A DNA stretch of 8,137 nucleotides. It comes from a virus. Its lineage: Duplodnaviria; Heunggongvirae; Uroviricota; Caudoviricetes. Below the pieces are notes generated by a model. The model was not told the DNA's origin. It ran no database searches and saw only the letters and a program-made list of their open reading frames with translations. Every line of letters starts with the position of its first letter. Position 1 is the first letter of the stretch. The translations under genes were made by a program, and so were the position numbers. The DNA lies in the IMG/VR virus record IMGVR_UViG_2778261702_000016; one strand, written 5' to 3'. Positions 1-8,137 of this stretch are shown here, in pieces.

Positions 1-259
1 CCACTGTACATCTGGCCACCCTGATACCTTCGCGTAACAACTGGCGCCAGACTTTACGCACACCGTACACCTGATGATTTTCATCGTATACGCGCTGTAT
101 CTCTCTCTTCAGCCAGTCATCGCGCTGCGCACGGGCACTGCGTTTATCCGGATGATGTCGCTGTTGCTGACAGTGGTAATACGTTGACGGGGCAATATGC
201 AGTTCACTGCATACCGGTCCGACCCCGTACTGCTCACGCAGCTTATCCAGCAGCGGCAT
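1..259 (-). CDS. IS3-family transposase OrfB (catalytic part), 5' 86 codons only, runs off window edge; normally made as an OrfAB fusion by -1 frameshifting
   Basis: Minus-strand frame from ATG at 259..257 translates [36 protein letters not shown]... with no stop to position 2; A-rich slippery run (plus strand TTTTTT 262..267) overlaps the orfA stop. Confidence 0.85.
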   Translation of the reverse strand, partial: MPLLDKLREQYGVGPVCSELHIAPSTYYHCQQQRHHPDKRSARAQRDDWLKREIQRVYDENHQVYGVRKVWRQLLREGIRVARCTV

Positions 260-585
260 TATTTTTTCCAGAGGCGGTCGAACTCCGCCTTCGCAAAATA
301 AGCGGAAGCCTGGCGAAGGATATCGTTACTGCGGCGCAGTTCACGATTTTCACGTTCCAGCTCTTTCAGACGCTGACGTTCAGCGGTGGTGAGTCCACCA
401 TCACCGCCCCCGGTATCCCGCTCATGCTGACGAACCCACACACGCAGAGTCTCTGGTGTACAGCCAATCTTTGGGGCAATGGAACAAATTGCCGCCCATT
501 GTGAGTCATATTCGCCCTGACTTTCCAGAACCATACGGACTGCCCGTTGACGGACCTCGGGGGAAAAACGTGTATTTTTAGTCAT
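259..585 (-). CDS. IS3-family transposase OrfA (helix-turn-helix DNA-binding part), IS629-like
   Basis: 108-aa [29 protein letters not shown]...[30 protein letters not shown] with leucine-zipper-like C-terminus typical of IS3 OrfA; start 55 bp inside the IS left end. Confidence 0.9.
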
Positions 586-639
586 CCTGTTTACCTCTTT
601 CTCAGGGAGTTTAGTCTCCAGGATTCCCGGGGCGGTTCA

Positions 640-1215: not shown

Positions 1216-1788
1216 CTATTTATACAATACAACACCACTCTTTTTAGTTATATATGTGCAGTTTGATGGTATATCTTTATTTATAAAAGACATTGCACCT
1301 ATTTTTACATTATCCCCAATTTTACGTGATAATCCAATGATGCAACAATTAGCTCCGATATCAACGTTACTACCAATTTTTACTCTTGAACTAGGCATAT
1401 CACCATCTATCTGTCCAATGGTAGTATTCTGTCGTAATACCAGATTTTCACCCGCATCAACAGCAAAATGAACAACAATTCCAGCATGATGGGGAATTGT
1501 CAACCCTTTTCCAATATTTGCGCCCAATCCTATTTCACAACCAAACTTGTTAATTATTTTACTGTTTAACTTTTTGGCTGCTTTCTTATGTAATTTATTA
1601 CCATTAATATACATTTCGTTAGCCAACCGCCACCAGAAAAGGAAATTCCGGTTACGCTGCTTTTTCTCTCTTAAAAGCCTCCAGATATCCATACGTTTCC
1701 GCCGAATTACTTCATGTTTCCAGAAGTTTTTTAAATTAGTAGAGTTTCCAAATAAAACAAAGTGAATTGCCATTAAGTAAGATAGCAC
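1216..1788 (-). CDS. Hexapeptide-repeat (left-handed beta-helix) acetyltransferase, CysE/WcaB serine-acetyltransferase-like; probable polysaccharide O-acetyltransferase carried as phage cargo
   Basis: Motifs GCEIGLGANIGKGLTIPHHAGIVVHFAVDAGENLVLRQNTTIGQ...VKIGSNVDIGANCCIIG...IGDNVKIGAMSFINKDIPSN match the SAT/WcaB hexapeptide core. Start set at GTG 1788 (AAGGAG 6 nt upstream); longest ORF would start at ATG 1821. Stop TAG 1216..1218. Visibly AT-rich versus neighbours. Confidence 0.8.
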   Translation of the reverse strand: MLSYLMAIHFVLFGNSTNLKNFWKHEVIRRKRMDIWRLLREKKQRNRNFLFWWRLANEMYINGNKLHKKAAKKLNSKIINKFGCEIGLGANIGKGLTIPHHAGIVVHFAVDAGENLVLRQNTTIGQIDGDMPSSRVKIGSNVDIGANCCIIGLSRKIGDNVKIGAMSFINKDIPSNCTYITKKSGVVLYK

Positions 1789-1839
1789 GATAATCTCCTT
1801 AATTATTATTTCAGACCACACATGTTATAAGGTTAAGAG

Positions 1840-2445: not shown

Positions 2446-3282
2446 TCAATCTTTATCGTAAAAACTGCCACGCCTGGCACGGGCGCGCCGTTCCATTTCT
2501 GCCCTGACCATTTCGCCGACCAGTTTCGCCAGTTCGCGGGGATTCTGCGTAACAACGTTATGCAGATGAACATGAATTTCACCGCCAAATCCGGAGGCAA
2601 CAGGCTCCCGGTTACGGGAAGTTGCAGGAACTGATGCCACTGGCGATCGTATGGCCTCCACCACCGGGCGGGAGCTGGCCGCAACAACAGGGACCAGCGC
2701 CGGAGGCAGCGGAGCCGGGACCACGGGTGTGATATTAATTGCGGGGGCAGGCTTACTGACCTGCGCAATCTTCCGCTCCTGCCACTCCCCACGAACAGCA
2801 AGTGCGCGGGGCAGGTTCTTAAAGACAATATCGCCGGGGCCAATGCGTTTTTTTGTCTCATCAACCAGCTTACCTGTGTTATCAGCAATTTTGCTGAGTC
2901 TGCGTAGCGTGCCGGTATTGCTGTCTGTGAGAGGTTTGTTGTCTTTGGGTTTATCATCTCCGGTGCCATTGCTATTTCCCGCAGACTTCGGCGGATTGAT
3001 TTTCGCAATGTCTCCCTGAAACAGAGCAACCTTGTCCTGAAGAATGGCCGCACGTTGTGCGTCTTCGATTTTCTTGCGCGCCCTTTCCGCTTCATCCGGA
3101 AGCACACCGAGTTTTTCAAGTATCCACGCCAGCGTATCCAGCAACATTTTTGCAGGCGTCAGAACAAGCTGTAACGCACCACCAAGAACGTTACCGAATA
3201 CCTCGCCAGCACTGGTACATTTATCCAGCGTTTCCTTGCTGGACTCCATCGGTGACAGCAGCGATTTAAACCAGTTAAACAC
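2446..3282 (-). CDS. Tail tape measure protein, C-terminal segment (second half of a frame-disrupted gene)
   Basis: Frame open from 3306 to stop at 2446; track start is a GTG at 3282. Sequence FNWFKSLLSPMESSKETL...REPVASGFGGEIHVHLHNVV... continues the upstream tape-measure ORF in a different frame; stop lies 6 nt before the gpU ribosome-binding site. Confidence 0.7.
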   Translation of the reverse strand: MFNWFKSLLSPMESSKETLDKCTSAGEVFGNVLGGALQLVLTPAKMLLDTLAWILEKLGVLPDEAERARKKIEDAQRAAILQDKVALFQGDIAKINPPKSAGNSNGTGDDKPKDNKPLTDSNTGTLRRLSKIADNTGKLVDETKKRIGPGDIVFKNLPRALAVRGEWQERKIAQVSKPAPAINITPVVPAPLPPALVPVVAASSRPVVEAIRSPVASVPATSRNREPVASGFGGEIHVHLHNVVTQNPRELAKLVGEMVRAEMERRARARRGSFYDKD

Positions 3283-5258
3283 CTGGCTGAACCGCTTCCG
3301 ATTACGTCAAAAACAGGGCCAAACCGTTCAAAGGTGTCGCGCAACGGGGTCAGCCTTTCCATAATCCCGCTGAACACCCCGGCAAAGAAAGCCCTGATAG
3401 GATCCCAGTATTTCCAGATAAGAACGGCAGCTCCGGCAAGCGCAGCCACGATAAGACCAACCGGACTGAACAACGCCCCGATAACGCCTCCCAGTAAAGA
3501 AACGGAACCCGTCACCATTCCCCATAGCGCAGGTAACACCCTGACGACATTCATTGACCGGGTAAGAATGTCAAAACCAAGACGCAGGGTGGCCAGCTTC
3601 CCGTAAAGCACCCCAATAACCAGCGACAACGAGCCAATCGTTGCAGTCATTGCCAGCAACGCACCGCCTGCTATCAGTAGCTGGCGCGTCAGTACCGGAT
3701 GGGCCTGCGCCAGCGAGGTGATTTTTTCAAGCACCCGCGTGAGCCACTGCGTGACAGAACGCAGCGGACCGTCAACCAGATCACTGATGCGAATACGAAG
3801 ACCTTCCCATGCGCTGTCGAGATTTTTCAGGTCCCCATCAAGATTATCAGCCATTACTTTTGCGACGCGATCGGCCTCTCCCCTTGCCCCCTGCAATTCT
3901 CTGGTCAGTTTTTGCAGCTCTCCTGAACCAGCCGCCGCAACAAGCGTCTGCAAACCAACGAACGCCTCTTCTCCGGCGATGTCCTTGAAGAAGGAGACCT
4001 GGTCCACCTGTCCGTATTTTTGTGTCGCCTTATAGAGATCAAGCAGCACATCCTCCATCGGGCGCATTTTGCCTCTGGCGTCAGCAACTGACACCCCCAG
4101 CTCTTTCAGTGCATCAGCCGCAGCTTTTGGCGGTGATGCAAGGCGGGACAGACTTGCGCGCATGGCCGTGCCAGCATCGCTTCCGCGAAGACCATTATTG
4201 GCAAGCATCCCGGCCATGGCCGCCGCTTCTTCAAGACTGATACCAAGTTTTGCGGCAACCGGACCGGTATACTTCATGGTTTCGCCCAGCGCGCGTAAAT
4301 CAGTATTGGTCCGGGTAAATGCTGCTGTCAGCGTATCGCCCACCCGGTCCATTTGATCGGCTGTCAGGTTGAACTGTGTGAGGATATTGGAGCCTATATC
4401 AGCCGTCTCGCCGAGTTCGACGCCACCTGCCAGCGCCATATTAAGAACACCGGGCAATGCGGCCTGAATGGCCTGCGGAGTAAAACCAGCCATTGCCAGA
4501 AAGCTCTGCCCACTGGCGGCATCACTCGCAGTAAACTGTGTTTCAGCAAGTTTTAACGCCTGCTCACGCAGCGCCTTAAACTGCGGGCTGTTTTTGTCGA
4601 TTCGCGTCAGTGCCTGAACGCGGGACATCTCTTTGCCGAACCCGATCGCAGGCTGCAAAAAACGCCCGGCAGCATAGCCGCCCGCCGCTGCCGCACCAAT
4701 TGCCAGCGCACCACCTGTTTTCAGTTTTCCCGCGGTTTCCTGCGCGTGCGAATACCGCTCACGCGCCTGCGTTACACGCGCAAGCGCCTGCCGTTCGCGT
4801 TCAAGCTGGTTGTTGTATTGTTCGGTGCGTCTGATGGCCTGCTGAATGGTGTTATCGCTGCCTGTCAGGGAAATGCCGTGGCGTTTCAGCTCTCCGCCAA
4901 GTTCCCTCATTTTCTGAATTTCCCGTGTGCGCGATTCATTCAGGCGTTCAAGCCGGGTGCTTAACTGCTGCATCAGCTTTTGTTGTTTTTCGCTGAGCAC
5001 TGTACCCGTGCGTTGTAACTGATTAAGGGCGTTAAGCTGGCGTCGTGCTTTCACGATGCCAGCATCCGCTTTACTGACAGCGTCGCGGGCGCGCTCAAAT
5101 GATCGCGCCTGACGCTCGAGATTTTTGATCGCCCCCTGCGTTCGCTGGATGGAGTCACCAAACTGCCCCATCAGGCGGCGTGCGTTTTCGGCAGGTCGGG
5201 TCAGCCTGTCAACGGCGCTGAAAGCGACCCGGATATCAAGAGTCTTCATTGTCTGCAT
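3159..5258 (-). CDS. Tail tape measure protein (P2 gpT-like), N-terminal segment; reading frame lost near 3290
   Basis: Long alpha-helical Q/R/L/A-rich ORF with Gly/Ala-rich transmembrane-like stretches typical of tape measure proteins, placed between chaperone and gpU. Track start 5285 is GTG; first ATGs at 5258 and 5249 overlap the E' stop. The last ~44 codons before the stop at 3159 look out-of-frame (SARCLTGLNRCCHRWSPARKRW...). Confidence 0.8.
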   Translation of the reverse strand: MQTMKTLDIRVAFSAVDRLTRPAENARRLMGQFGDSIQRTQGAIKNLERQARSFERARDAVSKADAGIVKARRQLNALNQLQRTGTVLSEKQQKLMQQLSTRLERLNESRTREIQKMRELGGELKRHGISLTGSDNTIQQAIRRTEQYNNQLERERQALARVTQARERYSHAQETAGKLKTGGALAIGAAAAGGYAAGRFLQPAIGFGKEMSRVQALTRIDKNSPQFKALREQALKLAETQFTASDAASGQSFLAMAGFTPQAIQAALPGVLNMALAGGVELGETADIGSNILTQFNLTADQMDRVGDTLTAAFTRTNTDLRALGETMKYTGPVAAKLGISLEEAAAMAGMLANNGLRGSDAGTAMRASLSRLASPPKAAADALKELGVSVADARGKMRPMEDVLLDLYKATQKYGQVDQVSFFKDIAGEEAFVGLQTLVAAAGSGELQKLTRELQGARGEADRVAKVMADNLDGDLKNLDSAWEGLRIRISDLVDGPLRSVTQWLTRVLEKITSLAQAHPVLTRQLLIAGGALLAMTATIGSLSLVIGVLYGKLATLRLGFDILTRSMNVVRVLPALWGMVTGSVSLLGGVIGALFSPVGLIVAALAGAAVLIWKYWDPIRAFFAGVFSGIMERLTPLRDTFERFGPVFDVIGSGSARCLTGLNRCCHRWSPARKRWINVPVLARYSVTFLVVRYSLF

Positions 5259-5765
5259 TCCCGCTGCGAAGTGCCGCCCGCTCACGCCAGCTAACCACTT
5301 CGCCGGGCGTCATCATGAAGATTTCGGCGGGCGACCAGTTAAAAATAACGGCAATATCTGCCACAAAGTCTTCTATGTGCTCAAAGCACACAACCGTGAT
5401 CAGGCTTCCGTCGCCTGTTCGTTCTTCCCGCCAGAGTCCGCACCGCTCAAAAAATTTACGGCAACCACACATAACTGAATAAAGTCACGGGATGCCATTT
5501 TTTTGATCGTCACTTCATCCAGTCGCGGTGATGTCACGCGTGACAGCAGCGTAAACATGGATTCCGCTTTCAGATTCAGCACATCAGACAGCGACAAATC
5601 TCGCAGAGATCCAGCCTGCTCAATAGCCCCGGTGATCTCCACATACGTGATTTTTTCGCCGCCTCGCTCAATTGGTTGGGTAAGTTTTACACCACGCTCA
5701 CTGGTTTCTTTCACAGTGTCAGTAACTACCGTGTTTTCGGTATCGATGTTTTTCGTCTCTTTCAT
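5236..5765 (-). CDS. Tail assembly chaperone E+E' (product of programmed -1 ribosomal frameshift)
   Basis: The -1 frame downstream of the slippery site reads FFERCGLWREERTGDGSLITVVCFEHIEDFVADIAVIFNWSPAEIFMMTPGEVVSWRERAALRSGNADNEDS to a stop at 5236..5238, giving the P2 E/E' arrangement immediately upstream of the tape measure gene. Confidence 0.65.
5400..5765 (-). CDS. Phage tail assembly chaperone (P2 gpE family)
   Basis: 121-aa ORF MKETKNIDTENTVVTDTVKETSERGVKLTQPIERGGEKITYVEITGA...; AAAGGAG ribosome-binding site (plus 5774..5780) 8 nt upstream of ATG 5765; small acidic protein between tube and tape measure genes. Confidence 0.85.
   Translation of the reverse strand: MKETKNIDTENTVVTDTVKETSERGVKLTQPIERGGEKITYVEITGAIEQAGSLRDLSLSDVLNLKAESMFTLLSRVTSPRLDEVTIKKMASRDFIQLCVVAVNFLSGADSGGKNEQATEA
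5448..5454 (-). promoter_or_regulatory. Slippery heptamer T_TTT_TTG for programmed -1 frameshifting E to E+E'
   Basis: Minus strand GTA AAT TTT TTG AGC in the E frame (VNFLS); the heptanucleotide TTTTTTG is the plus-strand CAAAAAA at 5448..5454. Confidence 0.6.
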
Positions 5766-5819
5766 CAGGAAACTCCTTTCAGTCAGAGGCGACGCACTGC
5801 GCCGCCTGCATATTACTTA

Positions 5820-6332
5820 TCAGCCAAGCCCAAGCGCGGAACGGATGCGATCGGGCACAATGTCCTTGCCGTCCTTCCGGTAAATGAAGTTCAGCAGGTC
5901 AATCTCCCACAACGGGCGATCGTTAACACTCAGCTTGTAGTAGGTGTTTTTAATGGCGTAAGTGTGTGATGTGGCTTCGCCCTGTTTGGCTTCCCCCATA
6001 TCAATTTCCGTCACACGTCCGCGCATTTCGACTTCATACAGGTCGCTTTCATCATCGGTGTAGTATTCCCCCGCAAAACGCAGTAGCGTGCCGTCAATCG
6101 TGCCGCCATACTTCAGGAACAGCTCACGAACTGCGCCCCCCATGACAAAGCTCGCATCAAGCGCGGAGTCGTCCAGGCCGAGGTCAATACTTACCGCACC
6201 CATCATGCCACCACCCCGGTAGCTGTCGGTTTTGCGCGTCAGTTTAGGCAGGGTGACGGACGTCACCTTACCCACTTCGTTTTCACCATCCACAAACAGC
6301 GTAAAAAAGCGAAGATGTTTTGGTACAGCCAT
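5820..6332 (-). CDS. Phage major tail tube protein (P2 gpFII family)
   Basis: 170-aa ORF MAVPKHLRFFTLFVDGENEVGKVTSVTLPKLTRKTDSYRGGGMMGAVSIDLGLD...YYKLSVNDRPLWEIDLLN matches the FII tail tube pattern; start ATG overlaps the sheath stop. Confidence 0.9.
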   Translation of the reverse strand: MAVPKHLRFFTLFVDGENEVGKVTSVTLPKLTRKTDSYRGGGMMGAVSIDLGLDDSALDASFVMGGAVRELFLKYGGTIDGTLLRFAGEYYTDDESDLYEVEMRGRVTEIDMGEAKQGEATSHTYAIKNTYYKLSVNDRPLWEIDLLNFIYRKDGKDIVPDRIRSALGLG

Positions 6333-7516
6333 CAGGCACCTCCCAGCACCGCAAATGCGGGACCAAAGAATTCATCAGTAAACGACTGGTAAAGCTCCAT
6401 GTCTTCCAGCGGAGGAACGGGCGTATATTTGTAGCGAATACGCACACGCCCCTGACGTAAATTCGTGGTGCTGTTATCCTCGATGTCATACCAGCACTCC
6501 GCGCCAATCAGTTTCCCGGCAGTAACCAGTGAATCCAGTTTTGCCCTGATGGCACTGATAACATCCTTCACGTTCGCAGGTGTCAGTGGACTGTCGATGG
6601 TTTCAAACTGCGCTTCCGCAATTGAATCAGCCAGCACCTGTGCGGTTCGGGTATACACCTCAAAGATGTAGGCGTTCGTTTCCGGTGTGCGGTTGCCCCA
6701 GAAGCGGAACCCGTTGCGACGAATAATGGTCGTGATTTCTTTGTTGTTGAGGCTGTTGGCATCACTGTCTTCGGCCTGCAACGACCAGAACACATGCCTC
6801 GACATCCCAAGCACATTTTTAACCGGAACGTTGGACAGCGATTTGTGCCAGCCCTGCTCATGGTCAATGTACGCACGAAGGCCGCACGCATAAGCAGGCG
6901 CGGGGAACGTTTCGTTTTTGCCACTTTTCAGGTTGTAGGCGATGAAGTCAGGCCATAAGAGCATCACCTCACGTTCGTTGAATTTCTGGCGGTAGGTAAT
7001 CGCCTCAGCCATCGTGTTACAACCATGACATGTGGCATACACAAACGCGCGCAGTTTACCCGCAATCACGCACAGGGATTTTGTTACCGCCTCCGTGTCC
7101 AGCTCCGGCGCGGCCAGAATACGCGGACGGTATCCGATGCTTTCATCCTGCTCTGCAACAAGCAGCGCATACATCCCCGTATAGCTGCCGTCAGATTCAG
7201 AACCACCGATAACCAGTTGATCCTGCGTCTTACCGCCTTCTTCTTTGTGTTCAGCCACGCGAACGACGATCACTTTTGTGCTCACCTGGTCTGCGATAGC
7301 CTTAAGCGCACGATAAAGCGTCCCCGTAGTCCCGCATTTTCCCAGCACGTCATTGACGCGGGTCAGCAGTGTGGGCTTGTTCAGCGGGAACAGCTCCGCG
7401 TCCGCATCATCTGCCGTTGCCACGATACCGATAACACTGGAATCAACATCATTAATCGCTGTTACCAGGTCGGTACTTTCCGTAACACGGGCACCATGAA
7501 AACGAGTTTCACTCAT
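6332..7516 (-). CDS. Phage tail sheath protein (P2 gpFI family)
   Basis: 394-aa ORF MSETRFHGARVTESTDLVTAINDVDSSVIGIVATADDADAELFPLNKPTLLT...FRFWGNRTPETNAYIFEVYTRTAQVL... typical of contractile sheath proteins; AAGGGG 9 nt upstream of ATG 7516. Confidence 0.9.
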   Translation of the reverse strand: MSETRFHGARVTESTDLVTAINDVDSSVIGIVATADDADAELFPLNKPTLLTRVNDVLGKCGTTGTLYRALKAIADQVSTKVIVVRVAEHKEEGGKTQDQLVIGGSESDGSYTGMYALLVAEQDESIGYRPRILAAPELDTEAVTKSLCVIAGKLRAFVYATCHGCNTMAEAITYRQKFNEREVMLLWPDFIAYNLKSGKNETFPAPAYACGLRAYIDHEQGWHKSLSNVPVKNVLGMSRHVFWSLQAEDSDANSLNNKEITTIIRRNGFRFWGNRTPETNAYIFEVYTRTAQVLADSIAEAQFETIDSPLTPANVKDVISAIRAKLDSLVTAGKLIGAECWYDIEDNSTTNLRQGRVRIRYKYTPVPPLEDMELYQSFTDEFFGPAFAVLGGA

Positions 7517-7673
7517 AGCTTCAGCCCCTTGTATCCGTTAAATGATTCGGCAACAATCATCACCCACCACGCGCGTAATCTCACCCCTGCGCCGTTCTCC
7601 CGCCACGGCGACAACAAAAAGCAGTAACCCCCTCCGCACGCACATGCGACCATGCCGCACAGGGAGGGAACAG

Positions 7674-7940
7674 ATGACCGACACCACCATGCAATTGCTC
7701 AGTCAGGGCACAGACCACGTGAAAGTGCCGGATTTTGATATTCTCGCGGAGGGTAAAACGCTGTCAGGCGTGGCAGAGCGCCTGATGAGCCTGTCACTGA
7801 CCGACAACCGGGGATTTGAGGCGGACCAGCTCACCATCACGCTGGATGATGCAGATGGTCAGTTGCAGCTACCGCCACGGGGCGCGCGCCTGACGGTTCT
7901 CATTGGCTGGAAAGGAGAACCGCTGACAGAAAAAGGCACT
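7674..7940 (+). pseudogene. Phage late control gene D (gpD family tail protein), 3'-truncated after codon 89
   Basis: ATG 7674 preceded by GGGAGGG; MTDTTMQLLSQGTDHVKVPDFDILAEGKTLSGVAERLMSLSLTDNRGFEADQLTITLDDADGQLQLPPRGARLTVLIGWKGEPLTEKGT matches the gpD N-terminus (SLTDNRGFEAD.LTITLDD motif), then homology stops at 7941 and the frame terminates within 20 codons. Confidence 0.8.
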
Positions 7941-8010
7941 TGTAGATTCAATCTGTCAATGCAACACCCCTTTCAATTATCTCTTTCGGTGTTTTGAACT
8001 TCAGTGTCTT
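7941..8010 (+). mobile_element. Terminal fragment of an IS30-family element (inverted-repeat end), truncated by the IS3-family insertion at 8011
   Basis: 7941..7966 TGTAGATTCAATCTGTCAATGCAACA matches 23 of 26 positions of the IS30 terminal inverted repeat as I recall it (TGTAGATTCAATTGGTCAACGCAACA); starts exactly where gpD homology ends. Confidence 0.5.
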
Positions 8011-8137
8011 TGAACCGCCCCGGAAATCCTGGAGACTAAACTCCCTGAGAAAGAGGTAAACAGGATGACTAAAAATACTCGTTTTTCCCCCGAAGTCCGT
8101 CAGCGGGCGATTCGTATGGTTCTGGAAAGTCAGGATG
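8011..8137 (+). mobile_element. Second IS3-family insertion sequence (IS629-group, distinct variant), left end; runs off window
   Basis: Starts TGAACCGCCCCGGAAATCCTGGAGACTAAACTCCCTGAGAAAGAGGTAAACAGG; 118 of 127 aligned bases match the reverse complement of 513..639. Confidence 0.9.
8065..8137 (+). CDS. IS3-family transposase OrfA, first 24 codons (partial at window edge)
   Basis: ATG at 8065 after GAGG; translates [24 protein letters not shown], paralogous to the OrfA at 585..259 (V to I at residue 16). Confidence 0.85.
   Translation, partial: MTKNTRFSPEVRQRAIRMVLESQD

Follow-up and report, generated by a model that had tools for sequence, protein, structure and literature searches.

IS629 of E. 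coli O157 is often found among other IS elements, in what have been called 'IS islands', and a single gene can take up the element at more than one site (Rump et al. 2011, PMC3271280). The same paper gives a target duplication of 3–4 bp for this element and reports that no specific hot spot was found, that its target preference is unknown and that the target sequence is not recognisable. For prophage Sp13 of strains Sakai and EDL933, only a truncated copy termed IS.14 is listed there, so these two strains can be taken to lack an IS629 inside the IS30 copy of that prophage. The Sakai annotation at the locus reads 'prophage Sp13, P2-like phage; IS30 partial; insI1'. IS30 itself, as known from K-12, measures 1221 bp, is bounded by 26-bp inverted repeats, duplicates 2 bp of its target and encodes a transposase with the Pfam domains HTH_38 and rve. 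Both IS30 and IS629 transpose via circular intermediates in a copy-out-paste-in manner (bioRxiv 10.1101/2023.06.07.543989), and IEE-dependent excision of IS629 is reported to cause adjacent deletions that range from a few nucleotides to more than 40 kb (PMC9943667).

The window, that is, the whole stretch of 8,137 nt analysed here, is the right-hand part of Sp13, a defective P2-like prophage of E. coli O157:H7. It differs at 2 of its 8,137 positions (406 and 408) from the complete genome of E. coli strain Z1323HEC0494 (NZ_CP148319.1), in which the Sp13 locus adjoins leuZ-cysT-glyW, pgsA and uvrC. Open reading frames and BLAST together identify its content as the tail-gene block of a P2-like prophage with an IS629-type element at each end. 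According to the list of open reading frames, the minus strand encodes the sheath (6332–7516), the tube, E, a frameshifted tape-measure protein and U; a tail-fibre assembly protein and gpD are encoded on the plus strand. The intergenic region between the divergent sheath gene and gpD (7517–7673) is untouched by insertions, and the arrangement is the same in intact relatives. Within the block, the tape-measure gene (2446–5285, minus strand) is split into two overlapping reading frames, 3159–5285 and 2446–3282; RefSeq annotates it as frameshifted in O157, and it is intact in SMN013SH2, DEC5B and strain W150. Between the tail-fibre assembly gene and gpU lies a serine O-acetyltransferase-like gene (1216–1821, minus strand), found in strain W150 too; phages of this group probably carry it as cargo (a 'moron' gene).

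The element at the left end (1–639, minus strand), delimited by BLAST of IS629 against the window and the NZ_CP148319.1 locus, is another IS629-type copy, older than the one that begins at 8011 and oriented the other way. It is 95–96% identical to that copy and truncated at its own nt 1057 (4084–5140 of the NZ_CP148319.1 locus); the two copies are mutually inverted and 7.4 kb apart, and the left one bounds what survives of the tail-gene block on its other side. Its flank, ATCTGCTGGC at 640–649, is the published flank of IS.14, 'Sp 13, truncated' (Rump et al. 2011, PMC3271280). The immediate neighbours of this copy are plasmid-like parM/partition genes on one side and the tail-fibre assembly gene on the other, which means that head, lysis and baseplate genes of the prophage are missing at this point. 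Over 8 kb, the window and strain TR01 show 13 differences, all of them within 638–839, where the tail-fibre assembly gene begins beside the truncated IS; this cluster looks like a small recombination patch.

At the opposite end of the block, gpD ('late control gene D', the P2-type tail/baseplate hub) starts with an ATG at 7674 on the plus strand and ends at 7940, after 267 nt or 89 codons. The fragment was assigned by homology and by RefSeq, which labels the same span of a near-identical genome as a 3′-truncated 'phage late control D family protein' pseudogene. Its 89 amino acids are 97.8% identical to gene D of the P2-like phage P88, and identity to gpD of P2 is 59% over residues 19–88. In O26:H11, the corresponding chromosomal site holds a full-length orthologue that matches Pfam Phage_GPD (PF05954) with 8e-18 and 65 bits, the gathering cut-off being 30; no Pfam match was obtained with the 89-aa fragment, of which only about 20 residues overlap that domain. 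What is left here is a remnant, not a functional member of the family. The initial annotation had placed the break after codon 89, at 7940/7941, and these coordinates are right: gpD homology across 7941 was looked for in all frames and is absent. The truncated frame instead runs on for 18 IS30-encoded residues to a stop at 7995–7997, and the next true gpD codons (YIVDEIAHEGPPDRL...) sit beyond IS30 in NZ_CP148319.1.

What interrupts gpD? Positions 7941–8010 represent the right end of IS30, nt 1–70 counted from the right inverted repeat, with the transposase gene on the minus strand. BLAST of this segment returns 70 of 70 identical positions (E = 4e-27) to the IS30 end in 3,435 E. coli genomes, K-12 MG1655 included, and confirms the IS30-family match proposed in the initial annotation. 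The figure that came with that proposal, a 23-of-26 match to the terminal repeat, has to be corrected, for the repeat at 7941–7966 agrees at 26 of 26 positions with the right repeat of K-12; between its own left and right repeats, IS30 has 3 mismatches in 26 positions, and the lower count arose from comparing the right repeat with the left one. The minus strand of 7948–8010, listed by RefSeq as a partial 'hypothetical protein', holds the last 20 codons and the stop of the IS30 transposase, the only part of that gene within the window, and its translation (KTLKFKTPKEIIERGVALTD, then the stop) is identical to the C-terminus of the K-12 protein. By usual ISfinder practice, an isoform of an IS shares at least 95% nucleotide identity with the reference element. 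The remainder of IS30, read at three loci including the one in NZ_CP148319.1, is 99.5–99.9% identical to K-12 IS30. Judged by its sequence, the 70-bp segment is thus IS30 itself, not merely a member of its family.

The insertion left a clear footprint. Uninterrupted gpD reads ...GGCACTTACATTG..., and the interrupted allele reads ...GGCACT, followed by IS30, followed by CTTACATTG.... The left copy of the duplication, CT, occupies 7939–7940 of the window; at the far end of the element in NZ_CP148319.1, the IS30 left repeat is present and is followed by CT TACATTGTTGATG..., and the uninterrupted gpD genes of O55:H7 DEC5B and O26:H11 FWSEC0001 (...GGCACTTACATTGTTG...) contain CT once. Since CT flanks the element on both sides and is single in uninterrupted gpD, IS30 made its usual 2-bp duplication here, which supplies the target-site duplication that the initial annotation had proposed to look for. 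The gpD::IS30 junction recurs in 263 complete genomes. O55:H7 DEC5B had been considered as a direct ancestral empty site and was rejected in that role, its P2-like prophage lying elsewhere, near ihfA/pheT; it serves solely as a comparator with an uninterrupted gpD. Likewise, the idea that the outward TTGACA of the IS30 right repeat drives gpD and the sheath gene was dropped: a search for a hybrid sigma-70-like promoter at the IS30 end found none, with no matching –10 at a spacing of 16–18 nt.

Only 70 nt into IS30, a further element begins. Positions 8011–8137 (plus strand) are the left end of IS629/IS1203, of the IS3 family, 127 bp of a 1310-bp element and identical to a full copy at 127 of 127 positions; they comprise its left inverted repeat (8011–8035) and, from 8065, the first 24 codons of orfA. 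The start at 8011 had been correctly called before for an IS629-like copy. Three nucleotides, CTT at 8008–8010, are the left copy of its 3-bp target-site duplication inside IS30, as seen from the flanks in NZ_CP148319.1. That genome carries the element complete, at 1310 bp and with CTT on either side (...AGTGTCTT, IS629, CTTTCTCG...), nt 68–70 of IS30 being present on both sides, and IS30 restarts at nt 68 directly after it and continues to its left repeat. The 25-bp imperfect terminal repeats of IS629 in NZ_CP148319.1, TGAACCGCCCCGG...CCGGGGCGGTTCA, begin with TG and end with CA; OrfA has a Pfam HTH_Tnp_1 match, and RefSeq names the product 'IS3-like element IS1203 family transposase, programmed frameshift', with a two-part CDS and a pseudoknot.

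These observations settle the order of nesting. A repeat search of the NZ_CP148319.1 locus finds the IS30 repeats at 12442–12467 and 14901–14926, enclosing those of IS629 at 12512–12536 and 13797–13821. IS629 thus lies inside IS30, the reverse of the earlier description, which had the IS30 end inside and the IS3-family element outside. The core of that description, two successive insertions at one site with IS30 entering gpD before an IS3-family element arrived, is well supported. Its further suggestion, that the second event removed most of IS30, conflicts with NZ_CP148319.1, where IS629 is a simple insertion with a CTT duplication; a search beyond IS629, as had been advised, recovers the rest of IS30 and then the resumption of gpD. 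We therefore read the locus, with high confidence, as a gpD 5′ fragment, IS30 nt 1–70, IS629, IS30 from nt 68 to its end, gpD codons 90–113 and a deletion. Both junctions lie inside the window, and both target duplications and the IS30/gpD continuation are read with the help of NZ_CP148319.1; the window ends 127 bp into IS629, and we infer that its own genome continues past 8137 as that genome does. Nested IS insertion in a decayed prophage is an ordinary arrangement, and public genomes already carry an annotation of this one.

Past IS30, the reading frame of gpD is taken up again for about 25 codons (YIVDEIAHEGPPDRL..SARSADFRD), from which 6 bp, encoding residues TV, have been lost without a shift of frame. 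This remnant, codons 90–113, then joins sequence that lies 3.3 kb further on in the O26:H11 prophage (15001/15002 of the NZ_CP148319.1 locus versus 2692–6000 of the O26:H11 locus), and the rest of gpD, a yecA-like gene, ogr and hok are lost in between. Because the breakpoint is 75 bp beyond the far end of IS30, the 3.3-kb deletion is a separate event and not a simple IS-adjacent deletion. IS30 has itself been shortened: the O157 copy measures 1175 bp and lacks 46 bp (its own nt 58–103; at about 14870 of the NZ_CP148319.1 locus), whereby the native ATG and ribosome-binding site are gone. Where this IS30 copy is uninterrupted, as in FRIK944, RefSeq nevertheless annotates a 378-aa transposase, with a GTG inside the left repeat as its start.

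Together, this suggests a stepwise history. IS30 would have entered gpD between codons 89 and 90, duplicating CT and placing its transposase gene antisense to gpD. In the O157 lineage, IS30 would then have lost the 46 bp around its own start codon, and the 3.3-kb deletion would have taken gpD from about codon 114 onward along with the yecA-like gene, ogr and hok. Finally, in the sublineage of the window, IS629/IS1203 would have entered IS30 by copy-out-paste-in transposition 70 nt from its right end, duplicating CTT and splitting the last 20 codons off the IS30 transposase gene. Strain SMN013SH2 seems to preserve the earlier state, for its IS30, at the identical point in gpD, is full-length and the 3′ portion of the gene is intact; the order in which the deletions arose is one that we infer.

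Could IS30 nonetheless have been reduced to the 70 bp seen in the window, an IS3-family insertion with an adjacent deletion having removed most of it together with the 3′ part of gpD? IS629-adjacent deletions do occur at the same locus in other strains, for example 8_140198 and CEC13002, and IEE-dependent excision is reported to remove anything from a few nucleotides to more than 40 kb beside the element (PMC9943667). However, the sole complete genome with the exact junction, which differs from the window at those 2 of 8,137 positions, has a CTT duplication and the whole remaining IS30 after IS629, and the distal part of gpD was lost in a different deletion, with its breakpoint 75 bp past the far end of IS30. 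We accordingly consider loss of most of IS30 in the second event very unlikely. That the 70 bp might belong to another IS30-family element, or resemble the IS30 repeat by chance, drew what appeal it had from the match of only 23 of 26 positions given in the initial annotation; against identity to K-12 IS30 at 70 of 70 positions (E = 4e-27), a minus strand that encodes the exact last 20 residues and stop of the IS30 transposase, and a count of 23 of 26 that reflects how the left and right repeats are known to differ, it deserves virtually no credence.

The same holds for the notion that the junctions are assembly artefacts. With about 20 copies of IS629 per O157 genome, repeat-induced mis-joins between IS copies have to be kept in mind, such repeats being a classic cause of mis-assembly. 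Yet each junction is marked by a target duplication typical of its element, CT for IS30 and CTT for IS629, the same structure is found in an independent complete assembly, and gpD::IS30 is shared by 263 complete genomes, so that we regard mis-assembly as scarcely conceivable. The nested arrangement, IS629 inside IS30 inside gpD, is the reading that we carry forward.

How often has IS629 struck this IS30 copy? The junction of IS30 nt 70 with IS629 occurs in one piece in 1 of 5,426 complete E. coli genomes, namely NZ_CP148319.1. For a wider view, we used composite queries in which the 1 kb ending at the gpD break was fused to 1 kb of IS629 in either orientation; these retrieved 63 and 9 genomes, respectively, with an IS629-type element nearby, and 18 alleles were mapped base by base. 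Among the 263 gpD::IS30 genomes (O157 and related), IS629-type elements occupy 15 or more positions in the 1175-bp IS30 copy: nt 28, 70, 107, 118, 151, 414, 481, 617, 796, 841 and 979 in the orientation of the window, and nt 49, 154, 250 and 887 in the opposite one. Target duplications of 3 or 4 bp accompany 14 of these 15 sites, and the nt-887 allele has an adjacent deletion instead. Two further IS629 insertions lie in the 75-bp gpD remnant just past IS30. Spans of 743 and about 310–315, taken at one point for additional IS30 sites, proved to be IS629 in the sheath gene (FRIK944 and CEC13091).

The sites are unevenly spread: 7 of the 15 fall within the 154 nt next to gpD, where about 2 would be expected under a uniform distribution (binomial P = 0.0016). 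No obvious consensus emerged among the 15 target duplications, and the preference for one orientation (11 of 15 sites) falls short of significance (P = 0.12). As a control, a query was anchored in the tape-measure gene, an equally defunct, frameshifted neighbour in this prophage; run in the plus orientation only and for O157 genomes, it found 2 distinct sites, versus 12 within 1.5 kb of the gpD break. The regional enrichment is moderate, about six-fold, and based on small numbers, and it accords with the published observation that IS629 is often located near other IS elements (PMC3271280). That the Sp13 IS30 copy is a real regional hot spot for IS629, rather than neutral DNA tolerating hits, is a possibility we view with some doubt. 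In IS30 copies outside Sp13, IS629-type left ends likewise occur up to about 0.5 kb from the right end (O157:H- 493/89 plasmid, ETEC, NCTC9038). The IS30 sequence itself may be a frequent IS629 target.

Deletion derivatives of the locus are found in other strains. In 8_140198, IS629 is bordered by IS30 nt 58 and nt 977; CEC13002 lacks everything from nt 888 to the end of IS30; and in several strains gpD has been wholly lost. Judged from the window alone, its own strain might therefore have a deletion too. A smaller deletion of 3 bp (AGT/TAG), at IS30 nt 108–110 (13859–13861 of the NZ_CP148319.1 locus), abuts the TCT duplication of the nt-107 allele. A local hop of IS629 from nt 107 to nt 70 in the strain of the window, considered as an explanation, is refuted by the occurrence of this deletion in about 100 genome records, among them Sakai and EDL933, which have no IS629 there. 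The 3-bp deletion is thus an older lineage marker; from its position in the sequence, it might go back to an ancient, imprecise excision of IS629, given the adjacent deletions of a few nucleotides upward described for IEE-dependent excision (PMC9943667), or be a coincidence.

We expect the insertions to have had no functional consequence beyond the earlier losses, and no phenotype, because the prophage was already dead: ogr, the activator of gpD, is absent along with most head, baseplate and lysis genes, and gpD itself is dead. Rare as it is, IS629 at IS30 nt 70 is useful only as a strain marker. More generally, O157 sublineages differ in where IS629 sits at the Sp13 locus, a variation on which typing by IS-printing is based, and repeated hits in a single 1.2-kb target could help define what attracts this element.

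In comparison with described systems, the closest match is Sp13 of Sakai, with which the window shares the locus, the gpD break after codon 89, the IS30 copy with its 3-bp internal deletion and the truncated IS.14 copy at the other end of the tail-gene block. Sakai and EDL933 carry gpD::IS30 without an inner IS629, whereas the window has an extra IS629 at IS30 nt 70. Relative to IS30 of K-12, the 70 bp in the window are identical, but the O157 copy as a whole is 1175 bp long, without the 46 bp, and in the lineage of the window nt 108–110 are missing too. A near parallel to the inner insertion is IS.33, described for Sp13 of EC4115 and TW14359 (PMC3271280): it is an IS629-type element in the same IS30 copy and in the same orientation, with a 3-bp duplication (CAG), and its published flanks, GCTCAGACAG and CAGTGTCAGG, match those that we mapped in TR01. 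It differs in its position, IS30 nt 979 instead of nt 70, and in its IS629 sub-type, which is about 95% identical to the copy in the window. The Sp13 locus also fits the description of 'IS islands' around IS629 in O157 (PMC3271280). While no specific IS629 hot spot was found in that work, here a single 1.2-kb IS30 copy has received IS629 at 15 or more sites.
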